NCBI GenBank assembly: GCA_037144355.1
Contig: JBAWWY010000007.1
Coordinates: forward strand, 1,083 to 65,082
Length of the DNA stretch: 64,000 nt
Direction: 5' to 3'
DNA from: Eubacteriales bacterium
GTDB lineage: Bacteria > Bacillota > Clostridia > Peptostreptococcales > Anaerovoracaceae
Shown here piece after piece: positions 18,815 to 47,126 of this stretch (its first letter is position 1; every line of letters starts with the position of its first letter). The notes beneath the pieces were generated by a model. It was not told the origin of the DNA and did not search any database. It saw only the letters and a program-made list of their open reading frames with translations. The translations under genes were made by a program, and so were the position numbers.

Positions 18815-19372
18815 TTATTGTGCCATTTTCTTGCCTAGTTCAAATGCCTTGCTTAATGTTTCATCATTAGTCGCAATTTCCCCAGATTCTCCTGCTGTAG
18901 CATGAACAATTCCAGCAATTTCTCCCCCACAATGGTTAAATATATCCTGAAATGTTCTAAAAGCATTGACTGCTCCGGAAGAAAATGCATCTTCATCTGC
19001 ATAAGTCATAATTATGCCTGCTTGCTTATTTTCCAAAAATAGTTCGTTTTTCATGTAAACTGAAAACCATCGGTCAATAAACAGTTTCATTTGCCCCGAC
19101 ATATTGAACCAATATACTGGGCTCGCCAATATTATCCCATCCGCTTCTTCAATTGATTTATAAAATTTTTTCATGTCATCTTCTATTATGCAATCAATAT
19201 TCTCATCGGAACAACTTTCGCATGCAATACAAGGTTTGATTGATTCATTTCTTAGAAGAATTTCAATTACCAATCCCCCTTTAGATAGAACTCCTTCTAT
19301 TGCCTTGTCAGCAAGTAGGTCTGTGTTTCCGCCAGCTCTTGGACTTCCTTTTACTACAAGTATTCTTTTCAT
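18815..19372 (-). CDS. Flavodoxin-like fold NAD(P)H-dependent FMN reductase / iron-sulfur flavoprotein-like protein
   Basis: MKRILVVKGSPRAGGNTDLL N-terminus, CIACESC motif, and ASPVYWFNMSGQMK. Start set at the second ATG, which has better RBS spacing. Confidence 0.7.
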   Translation of the reverse strand: MKRILVVKGSPRAGGNTDLLADKAIEGVLSKGGLVIEILLRNESIKPCIACESCSDENIDCIIEDDMKKFYKSIEEADGIILASPVYWFNMSGQMKLFIDRWFSVYMKNELFLENKQAGIIMTYADEDAFSSGAVNAFRTFQDIFNHCGGEIAGIVHATAGESGEIATNDETLSKAFELGKKMAQ

Positions 19373-19414
19373 TTTTCCCATCCTTTTAACAAGTTTCCTT
19401 GTTCAATATTATAT

Positions 19415-19807
19415 CTAGTGCTTATGCCCTTCACAACTTCCTTGATGGATATGGATATCATCTTCCTCATTTTCCGGATTTTTAAAATATCCCAAATTTT
19501 GCGAATTCATTCTATTGATTGCTTCTTTTGCCGTGAGACCTCTTCCATCAAAGCGGGTAACCCCTTCATTAGCCAATATATTAAAGGCTTCATAGTTTAA
19601 GATTCCTGAGATAAGGGCTTCGCAGTTTTCTTCTATTACAACAACCGCCAAGGCTGTTTCCGGCATATCGAATGGATAACTTGATTTTGAACTCATTCTC
19701 AACGTATCATCATCGATCTCCATGATTAATAGGAATTTCGACATGGAAAATCTTTCATCAATAATTCCATCCACGTTGTCTATATTTGTTGAAATCGCTA
19801 TTTTCAT
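19415..19807 (-). CDS. NifB/NifX-family (dinitrogenase FeMo-cofactor-binding fold) small protein with a His/Cys-rich tail
   Basis: 130 aa. MKIAIST...DERFSMSKFLLIMEID pattern, and C-terminal HIHQGSCEGHKH. Confidence 0.5.
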   Translation of the reverse strand: MKIAISTNIDNVDGIIDERFSMSKFLLIMEIDDDTLRMSSKSSYPFDMPETALAVVVIEENCEALISGILNYEAFNILANEGVTRFDGRGLTAKEAINRMNSQNLGYFKNPENEEDDIHIHQGSCEGHKH

Positions 19808-20037
19808 ATTTCCCCCTTAGTAAAATCTTCTTGTTTTGTAGTATGTAAATCTCACTTCATTATAGTAAATGTCCTATTGATTATATTTTACCTGGTTTTC
19901 ATTTGTCAAATACTAAAACATTATTATAGAAGCAAAATTCATGTAAATGGTTTTTACAACCATTATGAAATCCTTATGGTTTGATGGTATAATATGCAAA
20001 ACAATTGTATTATTTTTTACTAATAGGAGAGTGGGCT

Positions 20038-20997
20038 ATGATAAAGTTGATAATCTTTGGAACGGGTGTTGGTTTAAATAAATTATTGAAGGCAATTGCA
20101 TATGAGCATATTAAGATAGTGGCTATCGTCGACAATGATCATAAGAAATGGGGAAATTCCATATGTTTGCTGCAAGTTCAATCCCCTGATGTGATTAAGA
20201 ATCTTGAGTTTGATTTCATCGTAATTGCAAGTCAATCTTATAACCAAATATTACAGCAGTTATTAATGATGGGTATCGATAGGAAAAATCTAATAAATTT
20301 CTTTTCTGCAAATTTATGGGATTTCACTGGAGTTCCAACTTTAAGTATATATGATACTAGTAAACTTTCTGAAGATAGGTTGATTATTAACACCATGGAG
20401 AAGCTAGGTCGGAAAAGATTGTTAGATACCAGTGATGGCGATTATGTAAGGCGTTCGACTTTAGAATTGATGGCCAGCGAAATATACTCAAAGAATCTTT
20501 CTGGGAATGTGGCTGAACTGGGTGTTTATCAAGGTGGTTTTGCAAGAATTTTGAATGAAGTATTTTCCGATCGCTTGCTTTACCTATTTGATACGTTTGA
20601 AGGTTTTGACCAAAAGGATATTGAGGAGGAACTCCTCCATGATTATTCGAAATCAAGTACGAGGACTTTTTCGAACACAAGTGCCGATGCTGTACTGCAG
20701 TCTATGCCTCATCCTGAAAATTGCATAATTAAAAAAGGATACTTTCCCCATACAACTCAAGATATTGATGATGCTTTTTCTTTTGTGAGCATTGATGCGG
20801 ATTTGTTCAATCCAACCTATGAGGGTCTGAAATATTTCTATCCGCGTCTTGTCAAAGGTGGATATATATTAATTCATGACTATAATAATATAGACTATTT
20901 AGGTGTTAAGGATGCTGTGAAGCAGTTCTGTAATGAGTTTGGAATTCCTTATTTTCCACTCAGTGATATTTGTGGAAGTGTTTGCATATCAAAATAA
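20038..20997 (+). CDS. TylF/MycF-type (macrocin-O-methyltransferase family) methyltransferase with an N-terminal Rossmann-like extension
   Basis: NVAELGVYQGGFARIL, FDTFEGF, SIDADLF and ILIHDY motifs. Start moved to ATG 20038, which follows aggaga. Confidence 0.65.
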   Translation: MIKLIIFGTGVGLNKLLKAIAYEHIKIVAIVDNDHKKWGNSICLLQVQSPDVIKNLEFDFIVIASQSYNQILQQLLMMGIDRKNLINFFSANLWDFTGVPTLSIYDTSKLSEDRLIINTMEKLGRKRLLDTSDGDYVRRSTLELMASEIYSKNLSGNVAELGVYQGGFARILNEVFSDRLLYLFDTFEGFDQKDIEEELLHDYSKSSTRTFSNTSADAVLQSMPHPENCIIKKGYFPHTTQDIDDAFSFVSIDADLFNPTYEGLKYFYPRLVKGGYILIHDYNNIDYLGVKDAVKQFCNEFGIPYFPLSDICGSVCISK

Positions 20998-21031
20998 TCG
21001 AATCCATAAAGCCTCATTCAATTACTATTAA

Positions 21032-21409
21032 CTAGATTTTTATTTTATTGGAGGTATTATTTAGTTTCGCGACTATATTATACATATTTGATACAGTACC
21101 AATTATCAATTTCTCAGTCAGTTTATAATAGTTTAAACATGTACCGCATGATAGTATTTCAACCCCTTCTGCCTCCAATGTTCTTAAGCTCTCCACAACA
21201 GTTGAGTCTTCAGTTGTAAGGAAAACACCTCTGTTTAGAAATATTAGAGTATCTGGCCTTGGATTGACTTCTGTAAGGCTGTATATAAAACTTTTCATGA
21301 GATTCTCACTAAGTTCTTTTTCTCCTTGTCCAAATTGGTCTGAAGTGATAACAATCACCATTTTATCATCCAAGCAAGGTTTTGATTTAATGTCCATTGA
21401 TCCATTCAC
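21032..21409 (-). CDS. DsrE-like protein, paralogue of the C-terminal half of YedF (no TusA domain)
   Basis: 125 aa, collinear with YedF residues ~85-192: QFGQGEKELSENLMKSFIYSLTEVNPRPDTLIFLNRGVF...ESLRTLEAEGVEILSCGTCLNYY...VSNMYNIVAKLNNTSNKIKI. Confidence 0.7.
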   Translation of the reverse strand: MNGSMDIKSKPCLDDKMVIVITSDQFGQGEKELSENLMKSFIYSLTEVNPRPDTLIFLNRGVFLTTEDSTVVESLRTLEAEGVEILSCGTCLNYYKLTEKLIIGTVSNMYNIVAKLNNTSNKIKI

Positions 21410-35164: not shown

Positions 35165-35905
35165 ATGAGTGATCGAAAAACAACAATAATTTTAGCTGCT
35201 TTTACAGTGGTTTTTCCCGTTGTAATCTATTGTCTACAACTATGGATATTCGAAGACCCACGAACAACTTTTTTTTACCTGTTGCAGGACCTGGCATTTG
35301 TTCCAATTTCCGTTGCTCTTGTAACTTTGGTATTCAATAAATTGCTCAGCAACCGAGAAAATGCTCAGAAAATCAAACGTAACAATGTGATGATTACAAC
35401 TTTCTTTGTTGAAAGTGGAACCGATATGATCGTGGAAATGGCTAAGTTCAATAAGAATTTTGAAGAATTTAGGAAGATACTGGCATCAAACAATCTAACT
35501 GGTACGGAAATAATAGAAACTAAAGCGAATGCTTCGAACTATAATTTTATCGTTGACTCAAGAACTGGAGATTTGGAGGAATTCGCCAAATTCTTTACTT
35601 CAAAACGAAATTTCATGTTGAGCATGCTGGATAATAGAACCTTGCTTGAGCACGATACTTTTACCGATATGCTTTGGGCGATATTCCATTTAGCTGATGA
35701 ACTGCAAAGCAGGGCAAATCTTAAAGAATTGCCTGCTCCGGATATGGACCACTTATCTATTGACATTCTAAGGGCTTATAAGCTCATTATTTTGGAATGG
35801 ATTGATTATATAAAATATCTTGGTGGAGATTATCCTTATCTTTTTTCTCTAGCCGTTAGAAAGAATCCTTTCAGTGATAATATCGACGTCAGGATATTGA
35901 AGTAG
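35165..35905 (+). CDS. Hypothetical membrane protein (2 N-terminal TM helices)
   Basis: ORF with a good RBS (aaagggaga). No family recognised. Confidence 0.4.
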   Translation: MSDRKTTIILAAFTVVFPVVIYCLQLWIFEDPRTTFFYLLQDLAFVPISVALVTLVFNKLLSNRENAQKIKRNNVMITTFFVESGTDMIVEMAKFNKNFEEFRKILASNNLTGTEIIETKANASNYNFIVDSRTGDLEEFAKFFTSKRNFMLSMLDNRTLLEHDTFTDMLWAIFHLADELQSRANLKELPAPDMDHLSIDILRAYKLIILEWIDYIKYLGGDYPYLFSLAVRKNPFSDNIDVRILK

Positions 35906-35919
35906 GTATTGCGTGATTG

Positions 35920-36201
35920 CTATTGCCCAGTCTTGTCCAATTTTGCTTCAAGCCTTTTGATTTCATCTTCAAGCTGTTTAACTTTCGACTTGCTTGATAG
36001 CGATGGGTCTTCTTTCCACCAATCAATACCTATTTCTTGAGCCTTGTCGACTGAAGCGATAATAAGCCTTATCTTAATTTGAAGCAATTCTACTTCACCA
36101 ACAGATATCTTAATATCTCCGGCAATTACTATGCCTTTATCTAGTATTCTTTCGAGAAGATCCGCTAAAGTATCCCCGGATGTTGATCTTTGAACAGTCA
36201 T
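35920..36201 (-). CDS. gvpJ: Gas vesicle protein, GvpA/J/M family (GvpJ-like)
   Basis: [43 protein letters not shown] is the GvpA-family core, with a longer C-terminal tail. Confidence 0.8.
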   Translation of the reverse strand: MTVQRSTSGDTLADLLERILDKGIVIAGDIKISVGEVELLQIKIRLIIASVDKAQEIGIDWWKEDPSLSSKSKVKQLEDEIKRLEAKLDKTGQ

Positions 36202-36245
36202 AATAATCCTCTTTTCTTACGAGCAAAACCTTTTTTTAATCTTAT

Positions 36246-36581
36246 TTAAAGCAACTTTCCAAGCGGACCGAGATCTATATTCAAATCCGATTCCTTGAGG
36301 TTGAATATTGCCCTCAACTCGGTCATTTTTTCTTCAAGCTTGATAAATGTCTCTCCCATTCTCTCTGTTTCTTCATCTGAAACAGTTCCATTTTCAATTC
36401 TTCTCATTGCTTGATTTTCCATAAGTTTTCTTAATAACTCAATAACAGTCAAAACTAGTTTTGCCAATCCTTGCTCAACGTTTTCTGGATCAAGTCCAAG
36501 ATTATTGCATTTTTCTGGTTTGTTGTCGCTCATTTCCCTGCCAAATAATTCTATATTATTGTCTCCATCCAAATATTCCAT
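36246..36581 (-). CDS. gvpK: Gas vesicle protein K
   Basis: GLAKLVLTVIELLRKLMENQAMRR is the GvpK hallmark. Confidence 0.8.
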   Translation of the reverse strand: MEYLDGDNNIELFGREMSDNKPEKCNNLGLDPENVEQGLAKLVLTVIELLRKLMENQAMRRIENGTVSDEETERMGETFIKLEEKMTELRAIFNLKESDLNIDLGPLGKLL

Positions 36582-36601
36582 TTGTAATCACCCCTTCAAT
36601 A

Positions 36602-37309
36602 TCAGATAGTCAAATTGCAAAAGTTGTAAGGCGGCCAAGGACCAGTAAGAATGAACTTATAAATGCTATTTTCATCCGCTGCCTTCTTATATGCCAAATT
36701 AAAATCAGAAAGGTCTTCCCTTTTAACAAGATAAACTCCATTAAAAAACATATTATCTGTTTTCAGCAAGGTTAATTTACCGGCCGAAGCACAAGCTAAA
36801 AGTTGTTTATGTATTACTTCTGATTCTTTTTCTGCTAAACTCTTGATACCTTCTTCAATTTTATATTCTTTCATTTTCTGATTCAGATAGCTTGCCACTT
36901 TTTCACTTTTGCTTTCCAATTCCTGGATAGTCATGCTGCTTATTAAATTTCCCCTAATTGTTTCATAATCCCACATTACCCTGACTCCGACTTCAACTTT
37001 GCCCGTTAGGTTGCCAATAACTCTTTTCAGTAATTTATACTTTTCTCCCAACATGGTTTTTGCAGTTTTTAAGTCCATGCAAGTTCCAAATCTAAATGGC
37101 AGTATCGTAGCATTATCTTCCAGCAAATTGTCAAGCACGGCCTCATGCGTCATGAAATTATTTTCTGAATATTTAAGTTCTTTGTCAATAACGCTGTATA
37201 TCATGTTCAAATCTTTGAATTTAAACACTAGCACCTTTGCCTTATCCATTCCTAAAACATCTTCGTCAATTGGCTTATCTGAAATGCAATACATATAAAG
37301 TTTTTCCAT
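36602..37309 (-). CDS. Gas vesicle protein GvpF/GvpL family (copy 3)
   Basis: LYMYCIS...VLPFRFGT...GPWPPYNF are the family hallmarks. Start is ATG 37309 or GTG 37318. Confidence 0.8.
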   Translation of the reverse strand: MEKLYMYCISDKPIDEDVLGMDKAKVLVFKFKDLNMIYSVIDKELKYSENNFMTHEAVLDNLLEDNATILPFRFGTCMDLKTAKTMLGEKYKLLKRVIGNLTGKVEVGVRVMWDYETIRGNLISSMTIQELESKSEKVASYLNQKMKEYKIEEGIKSLAEKESEVIHKQLLACASAGKLTLLKTDNMFFNGVYLVKREDLSDFNLAYKKAADENSIYKFILTGPWPPYNFCNLTI

Positions 37310-37331
37310 AATTATCACCCTGCTGAATTAT

Positions 37332-37547
37332 TTATAGAAGCAACCCTGAAACATCCTTCTTTTCTGGCTCTACTCTTAATAGTCTGTCAACCGATGTTAT
37401 TATAACCTGCAGTCCAACATATATAAGGTTCACATCTGCAATGGAGATAATCAAATCTCCTTTTATTACAATGCCTTTATCGAGGATCCTGTCAAGGACT
37501 TCAAATAATGTTACTTCCTTTGATCTTAAAGCGAAATTGTCATCCAT
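37332..37547 (-). CDS. Gas vesicle protein, small GvpA/J/S-family member
   Basis: [41 protein letters not shown]. Confidence 0.8.
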   Translation of the reverse strand: MDDNFALRSKEVTLFEVLDRILDKGIVIKGDLIISIADVNLIYVGLQVIITSVDRLLRVEPEKKDVSGLLL

Positions 37548-37622
37548 GAAAATCCTCCTACAGACTCCCTTGGTTTATACCCAAGCATTATTTTGATCCA
37601 GTCCTTTTTTTCTTTTCTATTT

Positions 37623-38411
37623 TTATATTAATTCAATAAAATTGTATATCGGCCATGGTCTGCTTTCTTGGAGGAAGTACCCGCTTTCTCCATATTTGTC
37701 GTTGATTTTTTCAATTTCGTCTTTCAAATCCTGAAATTTTATTTTATTCGCTAAAACAACCGCGTTCACGATAAGTTCCACTGAATCAACATCCTCTTCA
37801 TTTATTTCCTTTGTAATAATATTTTCGGACAAGGCTTCAATTCTTTCAAATATCTTCTTCGCATCGCGATTCACGCTATCTTGTATTTGTGATTCGATAG
37901 TGTCTTCCAGCTTTTTTGACAACAAATACGCAATCCCTTTTGGTTTTGCAGTAATTTCCTCAATCTTCTTTTTAACATCCGAAGATTCCAATATTGAACT
38001 TTTCATTTTGTCTTTGTCCAGAAATACTTTGATACTGAACTCGAAATTATTGTCGGCAACTTCCAAGTTTTTAACAATTTTCCCATAATGAGTTTTGAGA
38101 AATTCAGCAACGTTTCTTTCATTTTCGTATATGGTTAGGAACCTCATCGGTAAAACTGAATAATTCTCCATTATCTCTTCAATAATATTTTCATGAGCCA
38201 TTGCCCTTTCTTCAACCCATTCCAAATTATCCAAATGCTTGTTCACTGCATCGCTTTGGAACTCTTGTGAATCGACAAGACTTGATACGGCTTGTATATC
38301 CTTGTAATGAAGTATTTCAACTCGATTTATTCCAGATATAGCCGTTGTTACTGTAATCAATTCATTGTCTGTGATCCCTTTAGTAATGCAGTAAATATAT
38401 ATCAAAGACAT
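37623..38411 (-). CDS. Gas vesicle protein GvpF/GvpL family (copy 2)
   Basis: MSLIYIYCIT...VLPMRF...RPWPIYNF. Start set after RBS gaggggga. Confidence 0.8.
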   Translation of the reverse strand: MSLIYIYCITKGITDNELITVTTAISGINRVEILHYKDIQAVSSLVDSQEFQSDAVNKHLDNLEWVEERAMAHENIIEEIMENYSVLPMRFLTIYENERNVAEFLKTHYGKIVKNLEVADNNFEFSIKVFLDKDKMKSSILESSDVKKKIEEITAKPKGIAYLLSKKLEDTIESQIQDSVNRDAKKIFERIEALSENIITKEINEEDVDSVELIVNAVVLANKIKFQDLKDEIEKINDKYGESGYFLQESRPWPIYNFIELI

Positions 38412-38415
38412 AGTA

Positions 38416-38613
38416 TCAATCCCCCTCTCCCTGATTTTCGGCAAGCAAGTCTAGTAACTCGCCTTCTCTTTCCTCATATTCTTCCTCTGTAATCTCCCCA
38501 AGGTTCAACCTTTGCTCAAGTTCAGCTAATTGTTTTTTTATTGAGGCTGGCCCATATAATTCCTTATCAACTTCATCTTTTATTATCTCTGCCAATTTTA
38601 TTAAAAGCGACAT
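38416..38613 (-). CDS. gvpG: Gas vesicle protein G
   Basis: 65 aa: LIKLAEIIKDEVDKELYGP..LAELEQRLNLGEITEEEYEEREGELL is the typical GvpG pattern. Confidence 0.75.
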   Translation of the reverse strand: MSLLIKLAEIIKDEVDKELYGPASIKKQLAELEQRLNLGEITEEEYEEREGELLDLLAENQGEGD

Positions 38614-38640
38614 TCTTGATCTCCTTATTTATCCTGATAT

Positions 38641-39378
38641 TTATTGAATATTAACAAAACTATATGGAGGAAAAGGTCCTGTACATTTGAAATTCAATTT
38701 ATTTTCATACTTGGCGTCGAGTTCGATTATTAATTTGTCGAAAGCCTCTTCCATATCCTTTCCAATCAGAAATGAGGCGTTTAACACCATTTCATTAGAT
38801 AAATTCTCATTGGCGATGGATTCGTCGGCGAATGCCGAAAGCCTATCAAATATATCATCTTTGTAATTAAGGGAAATCGCGTTCAATTCTCTTTCGATCA
38901 TTTTTCCCACTTCAATAATCAAATTAAGATTCCCGGTTACAATTGTTTTTTCTCTTTTTAATTGTTCAATCACTTGGTTGGAATCTGCGATGGAACTCAA
39001 TACTTCTTCCACATTTGCATGGGATACCTTAACTCCCATTTCAAATTTATTGCTTACCTTGTCAAGCAGGTTCTTAAAACTCATGTACTTTGACTCGAGC
39101 ATTTTAACAACACCTTTTTCATTATCAGCCACAATCCCGAATCTGAATGGCAGAACTGGATATTTTTCCATAACCTTTTCAATTGTCCCTTGGTGGACAA
39201 GATTGTTTTTTCGAGTTGGCCTATATTGCTTAATTTCAGCATTGGAAACCACCGCGGAAATATCCTTGTATTTTATTGTGAAGATTTCCTCATCCTCATT
39301 TTCAATTCCGCCCCTTCCAAATGATGAAACTTCAGGTGCGTTTGTTATGCAATATAGATATAATCCCATTTGCGCCAT
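38641..39378 (-). CDS. Gas vesicle protein GvpF/GvpL family (copy 1)
   Basis: LYLYCIT...VLPFRFG...GPFPPYSF. Confidence 0.8.
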   Translation of the reverse strand: MAQMGLYLYCITNAPEVSSFGRGGIENEDEEIFTIKYKDISAVVSNAEIKQYRPTRKNNLVHQGTIEKVMEKYPVLPFRFGIVADNEKGVVKMLESKYMSFKNLLDKVSNKFEMGVKVSHANVEEVLSSIADSNQVIEQLKREKTIVTGNLNLIIEVGKMIERELNAISLNYKDDIFDRLSAFADESIANENLSNEMVLNASFLIGKDMEEAFDKLIIELDAKYENKLNFKCTGPFPPYSFVNIQ

Positions 39379-39416
39379 TTTGCATCCTTTCTATTGTTAA
39401 ATTCCATGCTGTTCTT

Positions 39417-41540
39417 TTACTTAATCATATAACCTAAATCTTCAATTGCGGTAAAAAAATCTTCCTCCCTGACAATGAAATCCGATATGTCTTCATATTG
39501 AATCTCCTTATGTTCTGCTATATATCTTTTTATAGCCGACATTGCGGCTTTCTTGCAAATATTTTCAATATTGGCCCCTGTAATATTATTTATCTGCTTT
39601 AATATCAATTCAAAATGCATACCGACCTCAACCGGCATCTTGCCTGCGTGAATTCGGAAAATTTCAAGCGCATCTTCAAAACATGGTTCTAATATATTAT
39701 AAATTATATCAAATCTTCCTGATCTCAATAACGCCGGATCTAATATGTCCACCCTATTGGTAGCAGCTAGAATCATAATTCCATCTCTTTTTTCAATGCC
39801 ATCAATTTCCACAAGAAGCTGGCTTAAAACCCTTTCCGAAACCCCTGAATCTCCACCTCCTGAGCCTCTTTTTGGTGCAAGCGAGTCAATCTCGTCAAAG
39901 AATATTATGCAAGGCGACGCAAGTCTTGCCTTTTTAAATACTTCCCTTACTCCTTTCTCACTCTCACCAATCCACTTTGATAATAATTCTGGTCCTTTTA
40001 TATAAATGAAATTTATGCCAGTTTCATTTGCAAGTGCTTTAGCAATCAATGTTTTCCCAGTTCCTGGAGGACCAGACAAAAGGACACCCCTTCCTGGTCT
40101 TACCCCTGTGGCTTCAAATAATTTTGGGTAAAGCAGTGGTAGTCTAATTTCGTTTTCCAGATCGCTTTTAATTTTCTTAAATCCTCCAACATCTTTCCAT
40201 GTAACTTTAGGAACATCCATGAACACCTCTCTCAGTGCTGAAGGTTCGATTTGGTTTACAGCATACATGAAGTTGGCCATATTGACCTTGAGCTGCATAA
40301 TAACGTCGTAAGGAATAGCCCTCAAATTGAAATCAATATCCGGCAGTACTTTCGCCAAAGCATTCATAGCTGCCTCCCTGCATAGATTAGCAATGTCCGC
40401 GCCCACAAAACCATGGGTAATCTCTGCAATCTTCTCAAGGTCCACATCATCATCAAGAGGTATCGACCTTGAATGAACATTTAGTATTTCCAATCTTCCG
40501 TTCTTGTCTGGAACACCAATATAGATTTCCCTGTCAAAACGACCTGGCCTTCTAAGCGCGGTATCTAAAAGCTCCGGCATATTCGTTGCACCAATTACAA
40601 CAATCTGCCCTCGCTTCTCCAACCCATCCATCAGTGTCAGAAGTTGTGTAACAACCCTTTTTTCCACATCTCCCTGAACATCGCCTCGTTTTGGTGCTAT
40701 GGCATCAATTTCATCAATAAAAACAATCGAAGGCGCATTTTTCTTAGCTTCGTCAAAAACCTTTCTTAGGTTTGCCTCGCTTTCCCCATAGAATTTTTGT
40801 ATTATTTCCGGCCCATTTATGCTAACAAAATGTGTTGATGCTTCATTTGCAATTGCTCTTGCAATTAATGTCTTTCCCGATCCTGGAGGTCCATATAGCA
40901 AAACTCCCCTCGGTGGTTCTATCCCTAATTTAACAAACAAGTCAGGATACTTGAGTGGAAGTTCAATCATTTCACGAATTTTTCCAATTTGCTTTTTTAA
41001 TCCGCCGATATCTTCATAAGTTATTTTTCTTTCTGATATCCTTGCATTGCCAGCTTTTAAAAAGAATGCAGTATCCTTGCCAACAACCACAATATCTGAA
41101 GGTTCGGTTTTTTTGACTAGGAAGTCTTCATTGATAAAACCAAACACATTGACTTTAATTACATCTCCTTCGCTTATTGGTTGGCCTTCCATTGCTTTTG
41201 CAAGATATTTTGTGAAATTGCTGTTTTCGTCAATACTTCTTGATGGTTCAATTACAATTTGTTTTGCTTGTATCGCAATTAGTTTCTCAACCTGGACTTT
41301 ATCGTTAATGGCGACACCGGCATTACCCCTTGTGGTGCCATCGATTTCTATGATATTTTTGCCCCTCTCATCAATAAAAGAAGGCATAGCTTTAACAGCC
41401 GTGCGCTTCTTTCCAATAATCTTTATTAGGCTGCCCGTCTCAATCCCAAGTTCGCTGAAAAACAGCGGGTCAATTCTTGCGATTCCTCTTCCTGCATCCT
41501 TGCTTGAACATTCAGATACGCTGAGAAAAATATCGTCCAT
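39417..41540 (-). CDS. CDC48/VAT-type AAA+ ATPase (N-domain + D1 + D2) embedded in the gas-vesicle cluster
   Basis: 707 aa. CDC48-N-like GRGIARIDP...GSLIKIIGKKRTAV, two Walker A motifs (GPPGSGKT, GPPGTGKT), two Walker B motifs (IVFIDEID, IIFFDEID), and SRH regions (ALRRPGRFD, ALLRSGRFD). Confidence 0.85.
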   Translation of the reverse strand: MDDIFLSVSECSSKDAGRGIARIDPLFFSELGIETGSLIKIIGKKRTAVKAMPSFIDERGKNIIEIDGTTRGNAGVAINDKVQVEKLIAIQAKQIVIEPSRSIDENSNFTKYLAKAMEGQPISEGDVIKVNVFGFINEDFLVKKTEPSDIVVVGKDTAFFLKAGNARISERKITYEDIGGLKKQIGKIREMIELPLKYPDLFVKLGIEPPRGVLLYGPPGSGKTLIARAIANEASTHFVSINGPEIIQKFYGESEANLRKVFDEAKKNAPSIVFIDEIDAIAPKRGDVQGDVEKRVVTQLLTLMDGLEKRGQIVVIGATNMPELLDTALRRPGRFDREIYIGVPDKNGRLEILNVHSRSIPLDDDVDLEKIAEITHGFVGADIANLCREAAMNALAKVLPDIDFNLRAIPYDVIMQLKVNMANFMYAVNQIEPSALREVFMDVPKVTWKDVGGFKKIKSDLENEIRLPLLYPKLFEATGVRPGRGVLLSGPPGTGKTLIAKALANETGINFIYIKGPELLSKWIGESEKGVREVFKKARLASPCIIFFDEIDSLAPKRGSGGGDSGVSERVLSQLLVEIDGIEKRDGIMILAATNRVDILDPALLRSGRFDIIYNILEPCFEDALEIFRIHAGKMPVEVGMHFELILKQINNITGANIENICKKAAMSAIKRYIAEHKEIQYEDISDFIVREEDFFTAIEDLGYMIK

Positions 41541-41552
41541 TTGAAATACTCC

Positions 41553-42092
41553 CTATTTAATTAGTTTCTTTAAACTCAATTCAAGCATTCCATTTACATA
41601 ACTTTTTTTGATTGGCTCCTGTTCTACTTCGCTCTTGAACAACAGTTCCTTTTCATATTCCCTAGTAGTCGATTTTGCTGAAATCTGAACAATATCTCCA
41701 TTGATAATGACTTTTATATCATCTTCCGAAACCCCTGGGATTTCTGCTATTACAGTGTAAGTTGCCCCTTCATCCATAATATCCACAATTGGCTCCCGAG
41801 TAGAATCAATAAAAACCTCCCCGTCCTTTTCATCTTTTTTAATCTTGTTTCCAAATTCTTCTATGGATGTGCTGCCATCCAGTGTCCTGACAGTAAATCC
41901 ATAGATACCTTTAACTTTTCCTCCCGTTTCGCTCAAAGTCCCTTCTCTTTTTATTTCGCCTCCGCTCAAATCAGAAACAGTGTTCATGATATCCTTCAAA
42001 CCACCAAACAATTTTCCCAAACCAAAATCAATGTTTATATTTATATCACCCTTCTCATCAATTTTTATATTTCCTTTTTTTTTATCATCCAT
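41553..42092 (-). CDS. Hsp20/alpha-crystallin-family small heat-shock protein (gas-vesicle-cluster associated)
   Basis: C-terminal ACD: YTVIAEIPGVSEDDIKVIINGDIVQISAKS...YVNGMLELSLKK. Confidence 0.7.
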   Translation of the reverse strand: MDDKKKGNIKIDEKGDININIDFGLGKLFGGLKDIMNTVSDLSGGEIKREGTLSETGGKVKGIYGFTVRTLDGSTSIEEFGNKIKKDEKDGEVFIDSTREPIVDIMDEGATYTVIAEIPGVSEDDIKVIINGDIVQISAKSTTREYEKELLFKSEVEQEPIKKSYVNGMLELSLKKLIK

Positions 42093-42118
42093 AACTATTA
42101 TTCACCTGCCAATATGCT

Positions 42119-42451
42119 TTAATATTCTACTTCAATAATTTTAATTTTATTGTATGGGTTGTTCTCATTCAGTTTTCCAGGTTGATAATACCCAGTGCCA
42201 ACCTGTACATCTCTTCGCCTTTGAGATATATATGCTTCCATGTCATCGATTTCACTTTCAACTCTGTTTAATTCGTATTTAGCTGCATTAGCCTTAGTTT
42301 CACAAGTCGTTATAATATTTTGCAGCATGTTTTTTCTTGAATGAAGTACCTGCAAGTCGAAATAGATAGACCCTTCTTTCTTTGGAATGCTGCTGAGTGG
42401 CCTACTGGATACTTGGGTCTTACAGAAACTGCCTCTATTTTTAATTATCAT
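42119..42451 (-). CDS. Hypothetical protein within the gas-vesicle cluster
   Basis: 110 aa with a good RBS (aagaaggga). Predicted helical middle section. No family recognised. Confidence 0.4.
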   Translation of the reverse strand: MIIKNRGSFCKTQVSSRPLSSIPKKEGSIYFDLQVLHSRKNMLQNIITTCETKANAAKYELNRVESEIDDMEAYISQRRRDVQVGTGYYQPGKLNENNPYNKIKIIEVEY

Positions 42452-42531
42452 GTTTAAATCCCTTCTTTACAAAATCTAAAATTTTCGTCATTCAACCTGA
42501 CAATTTACTAATGATGCAATTATATTCATGC

Positions 42532-43494
42532 TCAACAATGCTTGTTGATGAGTTCATCAACTACCTGTTTGCTAATATTCTTAGAATCGTTTTCCATTGC
42601 CAAATTGTTAATCTTGGAGCATAACATGTCATAAGCCACTTTACGGAAAAATGCATCCTTCTTTGATGCGTGACAATTGTTTTCCTTCAATATCTTCCCC
42701 ATCATAACTCCAACCCTTAGGGATGGAATCGATGAATATGATCCATTATTCCTAAAATCCCTTATCAAGTTTACAATTTTGTCTGCATCCTCATAAGCGA
42801 TATTTGCTCTTCCCCTTACAATTTCCCTTTCTGTCTCGGCATCCATATATCCCATATTGATTGTTATCATCCTGTCAAGAAGGGCATCCTGGATTTTATG
42901 AACTCCAGCATATTCTTCCGAATTGCTGGTGAAAATAGCCTTAAAATTCGGATGAACTTTTACATATCTTTCGGAGCTCATCGAATCGCTTGTTTCCAAC
43001 ATTCTTTCTTCGAATATATTTAGTAGAATATTATTCGTTTCTGGCCTTGAACGATTAAATTCATCATATATAAGAGTAAAACCGTTTCTGCATGCAATAG
43101 TAAGCTGGTTGTCAACCCACTTCTTTTGATAGTCATCAACGGTTTTCAATACGGAGTGTATGTAATTGTCAACAAGTTTCTCTCTTCTATATCCGGCCTC
43201 CGAACCAACGAGGTCAGAAGGAAGATATTCATCATTGCCATGAATGATTGTTACCGGGACATTGAAGCAAGAGGCTACGTGCATGGCAAGGGTTGTCTTG
43301 CCTGTACCGGCAGGTCCCCTTAGATGAACAGGATATCCGGCATTCAGATATCTGGTGACTCTCATGGTCAGCTCTTTTATATATGGTGTAATAACATACG
43401 AATCTTGCTTCTTCAGCCTTATCGCAACCGGTTCGTATGGATTTTCCGACCTTTCAATAATATCGATTTGCTCAATTTGACGGATTTGCTCCAT
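42532..43494 (-). CDS. gvpN: Gas vesicle protein N (MoxR/CbbQ-like AAA+ ATPase)
   Basis: YPVHLRGPAGTGKTTLAMHVA (Walker A) and LIYDEFNR (Walker B). The size and position after the gvpO-like gene fit gvpN. Confidence 0.8.
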   Translation of the reverse strand: MEQIRQIEQIDIIERSENPYEPVAIRLKKQDSYVITPYIKELTMRVTRYLNAGYPVHLRGPAGTGKTTLAMHVASCFNVPVTIIHGNDEYLPSDLVGSEAGYRREKLVDNYIHSVLKTVDDYQKKWVDNQLTIACRNGFTLIYDEFNRSRPETNNILLNIFEERMLETSDSMSSERYVKVHPNFKAIFTSNSEEYAGVHKIQDALLDRMITINMGYMDAETEREIVRGRANIAYEDADKIVNLIRDFRNNGSYSSIPSLRVGVMMGKILKENNCHASKKDAFFRKVAYDMLCSKINNLAMENDSKNISKQVVDELINKHC

Positions 43495-43520
43495 TCTCAA
43501 CACCTCCCCGCTTTTTACTC

Positions 43521-43793
43521 CTACGCTGAAGGTTCAATTGGTCCAATGTCGGTCCTCTCTCGCAAATGCATTCGCTTGAAGCCCATAACCATTCCATTGT
43601 CGTCCAATTCCACTTCATAAAGACCAACTAGGTCGGTCTTTGCAAATTTCCTAACATACTCGGATTCCTCAATAATTTCAAAATGGGAAACCCACTTATT
43701 TTCTTTCTTTACAAGTTCAATTATCTTACCGGTTTGGCTGAAATTACCGGAAATAAATTCGAGCACCTTATCCCTGATCTGGATAAATTCCAT
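43521..43793 (-). CDS. gvpO: GvpO-like gas vesicle protein
   Basis: 90 aa: ...WVSHFEIIEESEYVRKFAKTDLVGLYEVELDDNGMVMGFKRMHLRER. This resembles the GvpO/GvpR C-terminal pattern (Y-x-V-x-L-D..G-x-V-x-G-(F/Y)-x-R). Start set at MEFIQ, which follows gaggggg. Confidence 0.55.
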   Translation of the reverse strand: MEFIQIRDKVLEFISGNFSQTGKIIELVKKENKWVSHFEIIEESEYVRKFAKTDLVGLYEVELDDNGMVMGFKRMHLRERTDIGPIEPSA

Positions 43794-43820
43794 AAAAAAA
43801 CCCCCTCGCTCCAATTACTG

Positions 43821-44123
43821 TCAATCTGTCTTTTTTTCCGGCATATAACTTCTGATAACCTGGTAAAACATGCCGATTTCATTTAATATGTTCGATCTGG
43901 CTGATGGGTTTGTTGTTTCTGATAATGAGTTGAATCTTTTCAACACTTCATCAATGTAATCCCCCAAGGCTTGAAGCTGCTTATTTGCTTCAATGTCCTG
44001 GCTATTGGATATCATAATGTCAATTTTTTCTTTCAAATTGGGAAGAGCCTGGATTATCTCTTCATAGACTCTTTCCATTTCATCATTTCTTCTATCGATA
44101 TCATCATTCATATCCTGCGACAT
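43821..44123 (-). CDS. Hypothetical acidic helical protein within the gas-vesicle cluster
   Basis: 100 aa. No family recognised. Confidence 0.4.
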   Translation of the reverse strand: MSQDMNDDIDRRNDEMERVYEEIIQALPNLKEKIDIMISNSQDIEANKQLQALGDYIDEVLKRFNSLSETTNPSARSNILNEIGMFYQVIRSYMPEKKTD

Positions 44124-44163
44124 CGTAATCTTCCTCTCTTAGTTACAAACGGTTAACTTATAA

Positions 44164-44643
44164 TTAGCTCGGCTTGGTTTTTCTTTTAACAGTGTTCCAT
44201 TCTTTTCTCGCACCAGACATATCCTTGTGAAAACCACCTAACATTCCGCCGACATTATCTCTCAAATCATTTGCAAAAGCATTAAGTGATGTTCTTGTAT
44301 CATCGCCCATGTTTTTTCTTGCTTCATTGAAATCTGCAATCATTCCACTTACATCGGTTTTCAACTTGTTCAGTTCTAAAACTCTAATTCTTGTATCTTC
44401 TATACTGTTTCTTATTCTTTGCTTTCGATAATCATTAATCATATTGCTGACCTCTGACTTTAGTTTTTTAAGTTCGGCCATTCTATGCTTGGTATCATCC
44501 AAATTCATCTTTGTTCTATGTTTGCGAAAATTATTCATCATATTTACATTAGTCTTTTTTAAAGAACGAATGTATCCCTGCCTTTTATCATAATTGCTAT
44601 CTATATCCATTCTCAATGATCTCATCGCACTGGTTAAACTCAT
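44164..44643 (-). CDS. Repeat protein made of 33-residue units, directly downstream of gvpA (candidate GvpC-like gas-vesicle shell-stiffening protein)
   Basis: 159 aa from MSLTS, after RBS ggaaggaggt. Consecutive 33-aa units: NMMNNFRKHRTKMNLDDTKHRMAELKKLKSEVS / NMINDYRKQRIRNSIEDTRIRVLELNKLKTDVS / GMIADFNEARKNMGDDTRTSLNAFANDLRDNVG, then a partial unit GMLGGFHKDM... Units 2 and 3 match at 16 of 33 positions. Confidence 0.6.
   Translation of the reverse strand: MSLTSAMRSLRMDIDSNYDKRQGYIRSLKKTNVNMMNNFRKHRTKMNLDDTKHRMAELKKLKSEVSNMINDYRKQRIRNSIEDTRIRVLELNKLKTDVSGMIADFNEARKNMGDDTRTSLNAFANDLRDNVGGMLGGFHKDMSGARKEWNTVKRKTKPS
44248..44643 (-). repeat. Four tandem 99-nt (33-codon) coding repeats
   Basis: Period seen in the translation: aa 1-33, 34-66, 67-99, 100-132. 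The repeats are degenerate at the DNA level. Confidence 0.6.
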
Positions 44644-44677
44644 GATGTCTACCTCCTTCCAATATTCATTTAACATT

Positions 44678-44701
44678 GTGGGAGAGACTAGTCTCTCCCA
44701 C
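44678..44701 (-). other. Perfect 24-nt palindrome (RNA hairpin) in the gvpA-downstream intergenic region
   Basis: GTGGGAGAGACTAGTCTCTCCCAC. No U-run follows on the coding (minus) strand. Confidence 0.7.
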
Positions 44702-44819
44702 TTTGGCTAGCACAATCGTACTTGGAAAATCTATAAAATCTGCTTTAAAGCATTTTCTTTATCCTTAATGCCTACTATTGAATACCCAAGTATTAATAGT
44801 TTTGCTATATCTTGGGAAA

Positions 44820-45041
44820 TTAAGCGGCATGTGGTTGTGCAGCTGTTGCGGTAAGTCCAACTGCCTCTGCATATTTCAAATATGTTTCAACAGATGCGAT
44901 TACCAACCTTAATTCAATTGCTATTAGCTCGATCCCTACCAACGAAACCCTGGCCCACAAATCAACAACAATACCTTTGTCCAAAATTCTGTCGATAACT
45001 TCAGCGAGACTAGATGATGAGTTTGTTTTTTCTACTGCCAT
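44820..45041 (-). CDS. gvpA: Major gas vesicle structural protein GvpA
   Basis: 73 aa: [63 protein letters not shown]. This is near-canonical GvpA. RBS is gggaggtg. Confidence 0.95.
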
Positions 45042-45077
45042 TTCTGACACCTCCCTTCTCAAATATTTGCCCTAATT

Positions 45078-45107
45078 ATTATATACTCTCTTTAAAATAT
45101 AATGTCA
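45078..45107 (-). promoter_or_regulatory. Consensus sigma-A-type promoter for gvpA
   Basis: Minus strand: TTGACA (45107-45102), 18 nt spacer, TATAAT (45083-45078). It lies ~37 nt upstream of the gvpA ATG. Confidence 0.65.
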
Positions 45108-45116
45108 ATATGCCTA

Positions 45117-45145
45117 TTGACATTTACCATTATTTATTTTATAAT
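45117..45145 (+). promoter_or_regulatory. Consensus sigma-A-type promoter for the divergent gene 45205-46410
   Basis: Plus strand: TTGACA (45117-45122), 17 nt spacer, TATAAT (45140-45145). Confidence 0.65.
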
Positions 45146-45204
45146 TCATTGTGTATTATTTATCTAAATGTCACCCCTTATATATTTAGGGCCAATAAGG
45201 AAAG

Positions 45205-46410
45205 GTGGTGCTGGGTTTGTCCAAAAATCAACAATTAAGATCTGACATTATACGCCAAGCCAATTCAGGATTACTAACCGTTCCAAAAGCTGCCTTTGCC
45301 CTTGGTATATCAGAAAGACAAGTTCAACGTCTGAAGAAAATTATGAGAATTTCGGATTCTGGTGATTCCTCTGGTTTGAATTCTATTAGGAAAGCATACA
45401 ACTCCATACCCGAAGATATTAAAAATAGTATTCTTGAGATAAAAAATCAGGAAGAATATATTAATTGTAATTTTTATAATTTCAATGAAATACTAAGTAA
45501 TTTCTATGATATAAAAATTAGCTACTCAACTTTATATAAAATCTTATCATACAATGGATACAAATCTCCGAAAACCAGGAGACGTTTCAAAAGGCATACT
45601 AGAATTAAAAAAATAACTAATAGCCGGGTGCTTTTTCAATTAGTCTCCCCATCATTTGCATGGTTTGGGAATAAGGAAGAATATATTCTACATATTGATA
45701 TAGCGAATACCCCTTCACAGATTTCTGCTATTTATTTGAAAAGTAGTGAAGATTCTATTAATGTCACTAGTATGAAAGAGTCTCCTAAAAAGTTTTCAAA
45801 GTTTATTGGTGAGGAAGATAGCAATGACAAAAGTCTTTCCATAGTAAGGTTGCCGGATTCCGATTGGATTTCCATAACGCCCCATGGTAATACAGTTTAT
45901 CAAAATAACAGTAATCATTTTGGCAAACCTCCAAAAAAAAATATTGGGACCAAGCTAATAGCCCCTAGATCCCCACACAGCAAGCTTCGTATCGATAGAC
46001 TTTGGGAAATTCTACAGGGTTGGCTTTCAATAGAGTTTGCTCAAAGGGAAATTAAAAGCATAGATCAAGCAAATAAATATCTTCGCGTTTTTGTTCAAGC
46101 AAATACACCTCTCGGCAGTTATATTTCAAATTTAAACGACCGATTTATTCTGCCTATGGATAGTCTTGAGGGCGATATAATTAAAGCACTTGCAAAGTTT
46201 AATTTTGATGAGGATTTCATGCGCAAGAAGAAGCTATCCATGAAAAGAGCCGGACTTGTTTCAATAAAAAACGCCAGCTTCAAAATGGATAAGCAGTTGT
46301 TTGAAAAAAAGAATTTTGAAGAATATATGAAAAGAAGAGTTGTTTATAAAAATCGTGATACTGAAATTTTAGATATGATTTCAGAAATATTCCAAAAGAG
46401 CTATAAATAG
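45205..46410 (+). CDS. ISNCY-like transposase-derived HTH protein with a degenerate catalytic core (possibly domesticated)
   Basis: N-terminal HTH (AAFALGISERQVQRLKK). Collinear with the ISNCY-type transposase pattern: Y..FN..F.E.L...Y.I.ISYSTLYKIL; L-Q-x-[D]-xSP..WF here reads LFQLVSPSFAWF (Asp replaced); IDDAT here reads IDIAN; SPQAKGRIER here reads SPHSKLRIDR. GTG start. Confidence 0.55.
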   Translation: MVLGLSKNQQLRSDIIRQANSGLLTVPKAAFALGISERQVQRLKKIMRISDSGDSSGLNSIRKAYNSIPEDIKNSILEIKNQEEYINCNFYNFNEILSNFYDIKISYSTLYKILSYNGYKSPKTRRRFKRHTRIKKITNSRVLFQLVSPSFAWFGNKEEYILHIDIANTPSQISAIYLKSSEDSINVTSMKESPKKFSKFIGEEDSNDKSLSIVRLPDSDWISITPHGNTVYQNNSNHFGKPPKKNIGTKLIAPRSPHSKLRIDRLWEILQGWLSIEFAQREIKSIDQANKYLRVFVQANTPLGSYISNLNDRFILPMDSLEGDIIKALAKFNFDEDFMRKKKLSMKRAGLVSIKNASFKMDKQLFEKKNFEEYMKRRVVYKNRDTEILDMISEIFQKSYK

Positions 46411-46475: not shown

Positions 46476-47126
46476 TTAATTATTCATAAGCTCATTTGCC
46501 AGGGTAACTGCCTCTGCCGCGTTTTCGCTAAAACCATCGGCTCCAATCTTTTGGCACCATCTGGAAGTTACAGGTGCTCCACCTACCATTGTTTTAAATC
46601 TGCCTTTGAGTCCACGTTCTTTCAACAGAGACTCCAGCTTTTGTTGCTGTATCATGGTAGTGGTGAGCAATGTGCTTGTGCCAATAATATCCGCATTATG
46701 TTTAACGGCTTCTTCAATGATATTCTCATTGGAGACATCCCTTCCAAGATCAATGACTTCAAAGCCGTTGGCAACTAAAAGCGAAGCAACAATGCACTTG
46801 CCTATGTCATGTAAATCGCTCTCAACGGTTGCAAGTATTATTCTGCCCTTTTGCTTCCTCTTTTCTCCCCGGTCCTCCATTGCCTTGTTGAGAATTTCCA
46901 CAGCTTCCTTTATTGCATCTGCCGCCATCATGACTTCAGGTAAAAACACTTCGCCATCTTCAAACAAATCCCCTATTTCCATAATCCCTGGTACAAATCC
47001 CTTTTCTATAAATTCTTCAGGCTCAACTCCATCGTCAAGACCCTTTTGTGCGAGAGATAGGGCGAGAATTTTATCGCCATCAATGATGGATTGCTTTGCT
47101 GCTTCTAATAATTTAGAATCAATCAT
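46476..47126 (-). CDS. Methyltransferase-cognate corrinoid (B12-binding) protein, MtbC/MttC-like
   Basis: 216 aa. The B12-binding-2 cap is followed by ESDLHDIGKCIV (DxHxxG), then GTSTLLTTT and GGAP. Its ATG overlaps the stop of mtbB by 1 nt. Confidence 0.85.
   Translation of the reverse strand: MIDSKLLEAAKQSIIDGDKILALSLAQKGLDDGVEPEEFIEKGFVPGIMEIGDLFEDGEVFLPEVMMAADAIKEAVEILNKAMEDRGEKRKQKGRIILATVESDLHDIGKCIVASLLVANGFEVIDLGRDVSNENIIEEAVKHNADIIGTSTLLTTTMIQQQKLESLLKERGLKGRFKTMVGGAPVTSRWCQKIGADGFSENAAEAVTLANELMNN

Follow-up and report, generated by a model that had tools for sequence, protein, structure and literature searches.

What would a CDC48/VAT-type double-ring ATPase be doing in the middle of a bacterial gas-vesicle (gvp) gene cluster? 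The question is raised by a 64,000-nucleotide (nt) stretch of an Eubacteriales genome (contig JBAWWY010000007.1, family Anaerovoracaceae), hereafter the window, in which the ATPase gene (cdc48) directly follows a gene for an Hsp20/alpha-crystallin-domain protein (hsp20) and directly precedes gvpF. A first-pass annotation of the window had pointed out that GvpN is the AAA+ protein normally assigned to gvp clusters, and that no role of a CDC48-like ATPase in gas-vesicle biogenesis had been described. Both points agree with the literature: two recent reviews name GvpN as the gvp AAA+ protein and mention no CDC48-type ATPase (PMC10903477, PMC9501494), and no paper was found that places such an ATPase in gvp clusters or proposes a role for it there, nor any published deletion of such a gene, most subscription journals being outside the coverage of the search. 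The linkage of this gene to gvp genes is conserved across more than ten phyla, so a gas-vesicle-dedicated module is well supported, and we consider a functional tie between the ATPase and gas vesicles, as read from gene order and sequence comparison, to be highly probable. As for what the module does, the reading favoured here, which we hold to be somewhat better than an even proposition, is that GvpA-family proteins would be handled by Hsp20 as a holdase and by the ATPase as a stand-alone unfoldase or disaggregase, with GvpF perhaps serving as adaptor.

The ATPase and its position in the gvp cluster

The gvp cluster of the window (35920-45062) consists of fifteen consecutive open reading frames (ORFs), all on the minus strand according to the ORF list and Pfam, in the order gvpA, a 170-amino-acid (aa) repeat protein, a 100-aa ORF, gvpO, gvpN, a 110-aa ORF, hsp20, cdc48, gvpF, gvpG, gvpL/F, a gvpA-family gene, gvpF/L, gvpK and, last, a second gvpA-family gene (Table 1). 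The ATPase gene has an internal position in the operon, after gvpN and before gvpF rather than at the edge, and shares its strand with the 14 other cluster genes. The spacing reported in the first-pass annotation was recovered as well: cdc48 begins 12 nt after hsp20, in a gap containing a GGAG Shine-Dalgarno-like sequence, and its stop codon is separated from the gvpF start (39378) by 38 nt, likewise with a Shine-Dalgarno-like sequence. A promoter and terminator scan of positions 35500-45500 is no guide to operon boundaries, with 35 promoter-like sites where 35.1 are expected and without a notable intergenic terminator.

The architecture originally read from the translation, a CDC48-N-like domain followed by two complete AAA modules, is borne out by both profile collections. 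In Pfam, the protein matches CDC48_N (PF02359, E 5e-23, 81.5 bits against a cut-off of 35.1), CDC48_2 (PF02933, E 1.8e-9, 37.5 bits against 22.4), two PF00004 AAA modules (E 1.6e-95) and two AAA lids, while in NCBIfam it passes the TIGR01243 model, "CDC48 family AAA ATPase", with 867.4 bits (cut-off 802.65). Matches of this strength are well outside what chance would give. The N domain takes up residues ~1-170, the first ring (D1) ~171-440 and the second (D2) ~441-707. All four motifs quoted earlier are present in the translation, GPPGSGKT (residue 217) and IVFIDEID (272) in D1, together with GATN and RPGRFD, and GPPGTGKT (490) and IIFFDEID (545) in D2, together with AATN and RSGRFD. The catalytic residues are K223 and K496 (Walker A) and E277 and E550 (Walker B), and the pore loops carry K249-F-Y (KFYGESE) in D1 and K522-W-I (KWIGESE) in D2. 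All 61 gvp-linked sequences examined retain, in both rings, the Walker A and B motifs, sensor 1 and the arginine fingers, as well as aromatic pore loops (K[FY]YG[EQ]SE in D1 and K[WYF][VI]GESE in D2). Intact ATPase sites and aromatic pore loops fit a threading unfoldase with two predicted active rings. The closest solved structure is that of VAT (5g4f, E 2e-212). The identical protein at NCBI is named "CDC48 family AAA ATPase", and relatives carry in the databases only this name or "transitional endoplasmic reticulum ATPase". Two metagenomic relatives on short contigs (P0004, 1007 aa, and P0005, 993 aa; 3.7 and 7.2 kb) contain three PF00004 stretches and three lids each, and could be real triple-ring proteins or assembly duplications.

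Archaeal CDC48 is able to dock on the 20S proteasome through an HbYX motif, which would suit a regulatory or protease-coupled role, with the ATPase unfolding a regulator or feeding Gvp proteins to a protease. The window protein ends in ...GYMIK and carries no such motif; an HbYX C-terminus was found in 0 of 64 gvp-linked proteins versus 7 of 21 unlinked ones, all seven archaeal. Direct docking of the gvp-linked proteins on the 20S proteasome is therefore unlikely, and the missing docking C-terminus points to a stand-alone unfoldase or disaggregase rather than a protease cap. A precedent for regulated turnover exists in haloarchaea, where the activator GvpE is degraded as a consequence of the nucleoside-triphosphate-binding GvpD (PMC9501494). 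The window cluster, however, has neither a gvpE- or gvpD-like gene nor a protease gene, and no Pfam match ties the ATPase to a protease, so we regard a regulatory or protease-coupled role as the least probable of the explanations considered.

Linkage to gvp genes across genomes

Only five database clusters (formed at 90% identity) lie above 60% identity to the window CDC48 (88, 85, 75, 69 and 69%), below which identity falls to ~50%. On the contigs of three of these relatives (88, 75 and 69% identity), which come from different samples, the gene order is the same, namely gvpA...gvpO-gvpN-(110 aa)-(Hsp20-like, ~180 aa)-CDC48-gvpF-gvpG-gvpL-gvpJ-gvpF-gvpK-gvpM, and finding one arrangement on four independent contigs speaks against an artefact of assembly.

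For more distant relatives, the 80 best CDC48 homologues (49-55% identity) were taken from a set with one genome per GTDB species, and a locus was counted as gvp-linked when at least two Gvp families, searched with the window Gvp proteins, were found within 10 kb. Genes at related loci were called from tblastn matches with simple ORF extension, and the samples surveyed over-represent relatives of the queries. A survey of gvp clusters for CDC48-like genes had been proposed in the first-pass annotation, and its outcome is conservation across many phyla, so that the refuting case named there, a gene not kept in related gvp clusters, clearly does not apply: 59 of the 80 loci are gvp-linked, 55 of 61 in bacteria and 4 of 19 in archaea, with bacterial loci in the Desulfobacterota, Chloroflexota, Acidobacteriota, Planctomycetota, Bacillota, Calditrichota, Actinomycetota, Lentisphaerota and Pseudomonadota. 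Of the six bacterial loci not linked to gvp genes, four lie on short contigs. At most 400 nt upstream of CDC48, an Hsp20-like gene is present in 37 of the 59 gvp-linked loci; in 7 more it is no further than 4 kb away. The carriers include a cultured organism with a complete genome, Desulfomonile tiedjei DSM 6799 (L167, CP003360.1:5697160-5719283), in which the order is sigma-54 activator-Hsp20-CDC48-gvpL/F (twice)-kinase/regulator-gvpA...gvpN...gvpF-G-J-K-M. A profile search with Desulfobacteraceae-type sequences, aimed at Desulfobacterium vacuolatum, whose 23-kb cluster Hurt et al. expressed, yielded nothing but MAG or unnamed proteins. The Desulfarculales metagenome-assembled genome (MAG) UBA702 has a gvp-linked CDC48 on each of two contigs (L052 and L064), which points to a pair of gas-vesicle clusters, each equipped with an unfoldase of its own.

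In a Neighbor-Joining (NJ) tree of the CDC48 sequences (100 bootstraps), a group of 65 members takes in every bacterial sequence, the window clade and two methanogen-related sequences. Of its members, 59 are gvp-linked, and 98 of 100 bootstraps separate the group from the archaeal housekeeping CDC48 proteins (Thermococcus, Thermoplasmata and others).

The reverse survey was a metagenome scan anchored on GvpN, with a sample biased to relatives of the window GvpN (44-53% identity). A full CDC48 gene (48-55% identity) is present in 18 of the 26 loci that extend at least 6 kb beyond gvpN on its downstream side. An Hsp20 match accompanies CDC48 in all 18, and two of the other eight loci have one. 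On the GvpN tree, loci lacking CDC48 are interspersed with those that have it, which suggests that the gene has occasionally been lost or relocated from gvp clusters.

Several observations weigh against a gas-vesicle-dedicated module. CDC48 is absent from at least two well-flanked relatives (L135 and L145), and the gene lists of the Halobacterium, cyanobacterial, B. megaterium and Serratia model clusters contain no CDC48-type gene (PMC9501494); since these make vesicles all the same, the gene is not universally required, and the CDC48 module is common in one large branch of gvp clusters but not universal. Two members of the gvp-linked clade (L036 and L040) have Hsp20 and no gvp genes within 10 kb. 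The identity of the window N, D1 and D2 domains to the gvp-linked group (35, 66 and 50%) is matched by that to archaeal CDC48 (36, 64 and 48%). With raw identity equal to both groups and only an NJ tree to separate them, membership of the window protein in the gvp-linked clade is likely but not proven. A specially diverged N domain in the gvp-linked group, also considered, is not borne out by these per-domain values. Finally, the window cluster itself has none of the J-domain, Hsp70 and zinc-finger genes that are found in related clusters and described below.

A rival idea is that the pair is an archaeal-type Hsp20-CDC48 heat-shock operon, serving the whole proteome and merely situated beside gvp genes. 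The small heat-shock protein (sHsp) gene of the window adjoins a CDC48-type gene in the same way as in archaeal loci without gvp genes (L035, L075, L078 and L085), the unlinked pairs of L036 and L040 are bacterial and have full flanks, and an sHsp and an AAA+ ATPase form the core of euryarchaeal heat-shock regulons, the Phr regulon of Pyrococcus/Thermococcus and the HSR1 regulon of Archaeoglobus (PMC10653856). Unlike these archaeal units, the window pair sits inside a gvp operon in a bacterium, between gvpN and gvpF, and the bacterial linkage holds over more than ten phyla with rearranged gene orders. Bacteria, moreover, already own disaggregases. A general stress module is very unlikely on these grounds, and the most economical history has an archaeal-type sHsp-CDC48 stress pair being taken up by gvp clusters and then spreading with them.

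The Hsp20 partner

The window Hsp20 matches the Pfam HSP20 family over residues 104-176 (PF00011, 29.2 bits, cut-off 20.8), and its best NCBIfam match is the archaeal Hsp20 model NF041800 (E 4.8e-34), with 117.3 bits, below the cut-off of 140. All 44 Hsp20-like proteins upstream of gvp-linked CDC48 genes match HSP20, and 31 of them also match GvpH (PF05455, best E 4.1e-9), which in haloarchaea serves as an accessory protein and guards GvpM against aggregation (PMC6107691). In D. tiedjei the GvpH match is weak, and the window protein gives no match to the GvpH profile at E values up to 10. Hsp20 is no new element of gvp clusters: its presence in them was noted in 2010 (PMC2963123), and with the overlap between the Hsp20-like partners and the GvpH family, the Hsp20 half of the pair is known. 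GvpH differs from the window protein in that it pairs with GvpI and not with a cluster-encoded CDC48 (PMC9501494).

Other chaperone-type genes in related clusters

The pair is accompanied by further chaperone-type genes in many related clusters. Fusions of GvpF/L to a J-domain were found in 38 of the fetched loci, with the HPD motif kept in 37 of them, and three were confirmed in Pfam (PF06386 and PF00226, E 1e-13 to 1e-15); the C-terminal J-domain is carried, for example, in L166 (12168-13187), L007, L009, L010, L013, L014, L029, L046, L082 and L112-L114. Hsp70 paralogues are present in or at the edge of the gvp clusters in 15 loci (L166:1-4049 and 19333-21045, L009, L011, L016, L025, L029, L049, L082 and others), one of them a 933-aa Hsp70 protein with a DUF3731 domain, and a protein with a DnaJ-type CXXCXGXG zinc finger in 73 loci. 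In a Desulfobacterota cluster on an 8.2-Mb contig, three Hsp70-family genes, a GvpL/F-J fusion and a DnaJ-type zinc-finger protein are found around CDC48. Haloarchaeal GvpF binds monomeric GvpA, and GvpA, GvpJ and GvpM form inclusion bodies when chaperones are absent (PMC9501494); by its domain content, a J-domain on GvpF/L is predicted to tie vesicle assembly factors directly to chaperone machines. No paper describing a J-domain fusion in gvp clusters was found in the literature covered, which excludes subscription-only papers. In some of these clusters (L167; L166:17988-19346), genes for a sigma-54 activator, PAS histidine kinases and response regulators are found in between the chaperone and gvp genes, which hints at signal-controlled expression.

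In 26 loci the J-domain fusion gene lies at most 400 nt after CDC48, in the position that is held in the window by a plain 245-aa GvpF. This conserved succession of CDC48 and GvpF/L, with 38 nt between them in the window, would also be expected if the ATPase remodelled the assembly machinery, stripping and recycling the GvpF/L/G/K nucleation complex from growing vesicles in the manner of NSF or p97, and haloarchaeal GvpL and GvpF are indeed hubs that bind most other Gvp proteins (PMC9501494). The adjacency is equally compatible with an adaptor role of GvpF, however, and the constant Hsp20/GvpH partner points to aggregation-prone clients, so remodelling of the nucleation complex appears quite unlikely. 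The only CDC48-GvpL/F fusion encountered, a 977-aa ORF in a Thermoleophilia MAG (L021:9703-12633; GvpL/F domain PF06386, E 7e-47), is not recurrent: in a relative with 95% identity the protein is 708 aa long and unfused, and no fusion is seen among the 120 best database matches. It was rejected as evidence of linkage and is probably due to the loss of a stop codon or to an assembly error.

Proposed mode of action

Under the favoured reading, an Hsp20/GvpH-like holdase and a CDC48-like hexameric double-ring unfoldase would have been captured by gvp clusters as a dedicated proteostasis module. Hsp20 would bind exposed hydrophobic GvpA-family proteins (GvpA and the GvpJ/M-like ones) that are uninserted or misassembled, and the N domain of the ATPase would engage these clients, perhaps with the adjacent GvpF as adaptor. 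The clients would then be pulled through the aromatic pore loops of both rings and released as unfolded monomers, which GvpF/L and GvpN would feed back to assembly. What we infer in this scheme is that the ATPase forms hexamers, which proteins it acts on, whether it helps assembly or clears debris, and that GvpF is its adaptor. The holdase-unfoldase pairing of the first-pass annotation agrees with the intact ATPase sites, with the pore loops and with the abundance of chaperone genes in related clusters; its two proposed outcomes, help in assembly and disassembly, are not separated by these features.

The same unfoldase architecture and pore loops would equally serve a regulated disassembly, in which the ATPase, as a p97-like segregase, extracts GvpA from intact or collapsed walls, so that cells actively lose buoyancy or clear collapsed shells, while the hydrophobic monomers set free would be kept by Hsp20 until they are reused or degraded by other proteases. 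CDC48/p97 enzymes are known to extract subunits from stable assemblies (PMC10641518), and a 2024 review considers that a specific mechanism of gas-vesicle degradation is still to be explored (PMC10903477). Sensor kinases and response regulators also lie beside the module in several clusters, for example in D. tiedjei and L166. On the other hand, the gene stands amid assembly genes with which it is apparently co-transcribed, an odd location for an antagonist of assembly, and neither a protease gene in the window cluster nor an HbYX motif is there to support a degradative route. We therefore see regulated disassembly as unlikely, with the reservation that disassembly or recycling uses the same chemistry as quality control and that the present data do not separate the two.

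A broader proposal, which we put forward tentatively and with low confidence, is that many bacterial and some archaeal gvp clusters encode a whole undescribed chaperone layer, made up of the sHsp(GvpH-like)-CDC48 module and often of GvpF-J fusions, Hsp70 paralogues and DnaJ-type zinc-finger proteins, in which the CDC48 motor would extract GvpA from misassembled or collapsed shells.

Relation to known systems

The window ATPase shares with VAT of Thermoplasma acidophilum and archaeal Cdc48 the N-D1-D2 architecture, aromatic pore loops in both rings and, for archaeal Cdc48, ~50% identity, and differs from them in being encoded in a bacterial gvp operon, in lacking HbYX and in belonging, as far as the tree goes, to a mostly bacterial gvp-linked group. 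The disaggregation system of IbpA/B, DnaK and ClpB, in which clients are held in an extractable state until an AAA+ motor threads them out, the holding being done by a holdase, follows the same logic, and related gvp clusters add Hsp70 and J-domain proteins to it; in contrast to that system, the gvp motor is of the CDC48 and not the ClpB type, and the module is apparently meant for one organelle rather than the whole proteome. GvpN is likewise a cluster-encoded AAA+ ATPase, thought to power shell growth (PMC10903477), but it is a single-module protein of the MoxR/AAA_5 type, of ~320 aa and without an N domain. The nearest precedent for a second ATPase alongside Hsp20 in gvp clusters is the ArsA homologue of Castillo and Saier (2010), proposed together with Hsp20 to power biogenesis or to act as its chaperones (PMC2963123). 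ATPases of the ArsA/Get3 type have no relation to CDC48, however, and a CDC48-type protein is not mentioned there. Taken together, these comparisons suggest a known machine in a known archaeal pairing, the new element being its dedication to a specific organelle in bacteria.

Other genes of the cluster and its flanks

The features of the cluster are listed in Table 1. Every gene named after a family scores above the Pfam gathering score, and GvpN also above the NCBIfam equivalog cut-off. The first-pass annotation had placed GvpN separately from the ATPase at 42532-43494, and it is indeed a separate gene; the upper end given corresponds to the first ATG, and the ORF may extend to an alternative GTG at 43503, nine bases upstream of it.

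Table 1 Genes of the gvp cluster in the window, in the order of the cluster from gvpA to the last gene.
Feature	Coordinates	Strand	Evidence or remark
GvpA, major shell protein	44820..45062	-	PF00741, E 9.6e-15
170-aa GvpC-like protein, four repeats of ~33 residues	44164..44676	-	self-identity at offset 33
100-aa ORF, no family	43821..44123	-	present in close clade
GvpO	43521..43814	-	PF05800, E 4e-7, 30.4 bits, cut-off 25
GvpN, canonical single-ring AAA+ protein of gvp clusters	42532..43503	-	TIGR02640, 342.5 bits, cut-off 266.8; PF07728
110-aa ORF between gvpN and hsp20, no family	42119..42451	-	conserved only in close clade
Hsp20/alpha-crystallin-domain protein, 179 aa	41553..42092	-	PF00011, E 1e-6
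CDC48/VAT-type double-ring AAA+ ATPase, 707 aa	39417..41540	-	Pfam, TIGR01243
GvpF, 245 aa, directly downstream of CDC48	38641..39378	-	PF06386, E 1.3e-56
GvpG	38416..38613	-	PF05120, E 1.1e-17
GvpL/F paralogue	37623..38444	-	PF06386, E 4.3e-45
GvpA-family protein (GvpJ/S-like)	37332..37547	-	PF00741, E 1.9e-16
GvpF/L paralogue	36602..37318	-	PF06386, E 8.7e-47
GvpK	36246..36581	-	PF05121, E 4.1e-34
GvpA-family protein (GvpJ/M-like), last cluster gene	35920..36201	-	PF00741, E 2.2e-17

Repeats of ~33 residues are a hallmark of GvpC-type outer-layer proteins. The 170-aa protein that follows gvpA has no Pfam family match and shows 23% self-identity at offset 33 against a background of ~10%, with the repeat LKxxVxxM..., and its relatives come after gvpA in several other loci as well. 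No significant family match was obtained for the 100-aa and 110-aa ORFs in the Pfam and NCBIfam profile searches. An ORF of ~105 aa likewise follows gvpN in L166 and L167, without significant similarity to the window ORF; equivalence of the 110-aa ORF with the 104-aa ORF at the same position in L166 was rejected (E 0.047). GvpO is listed as specific to haloarchaea in a 2022 review, and a homologue is present in the bacterial cluster of the window and likewise in L006, L061, L166 and others.

The cluster is flanked by a PAS-GGDEF-HD protein and by a dimethylamine methyltransferase gene (PF09505, 47126-48580, minus strand) interrupted by a single in-frame TAG and followed by a gene for a corrinoid protein (46476-47126, minus strand). 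The methyltransferase looks like a pyrrolysine-type gene in a bacterial MAG, and the same methyltransferase and corrinoid protein pair is also found near the gvp cluster in L001/L002.

Significance

Among the questions left open in recent reviews are how GvpA, an extremely hydrophobic protein, is kept soluble and delivered to the growing wall, and whether vesicles are dismantled by a dedicated system (PMC10903477). A conserved threading unfoldase with a GvpH-like holdase, as predicted from the sequences, is a concrete candidate for both, and the J-domains on the GvpA-binding GvpF of related clusters provide a second candidate link to chaperones. The matter may also be of practical relevance: only 5 of 15 cloned gvp clusters yielded vesicles in E. 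coli (PMC10344784), and gas-vesicle expression in that host provokes proteotoxic stress (PMC12848028). The chaperone set encoded by a cluster may decide whether it works in a foreign host. If GvpA is indeed extracted from misassembled or collapsed shells, the module would be the first dedicated ATP-driven disassembly and recycling machine for a prokaryotic protein organelle, and could be a missing ingredient for expressing recalcitrant gvp clusters in foreign hosts. It would also represent a case of an archaeal-type stress module recruited to one organelle and spreading with that organelle across phyla.

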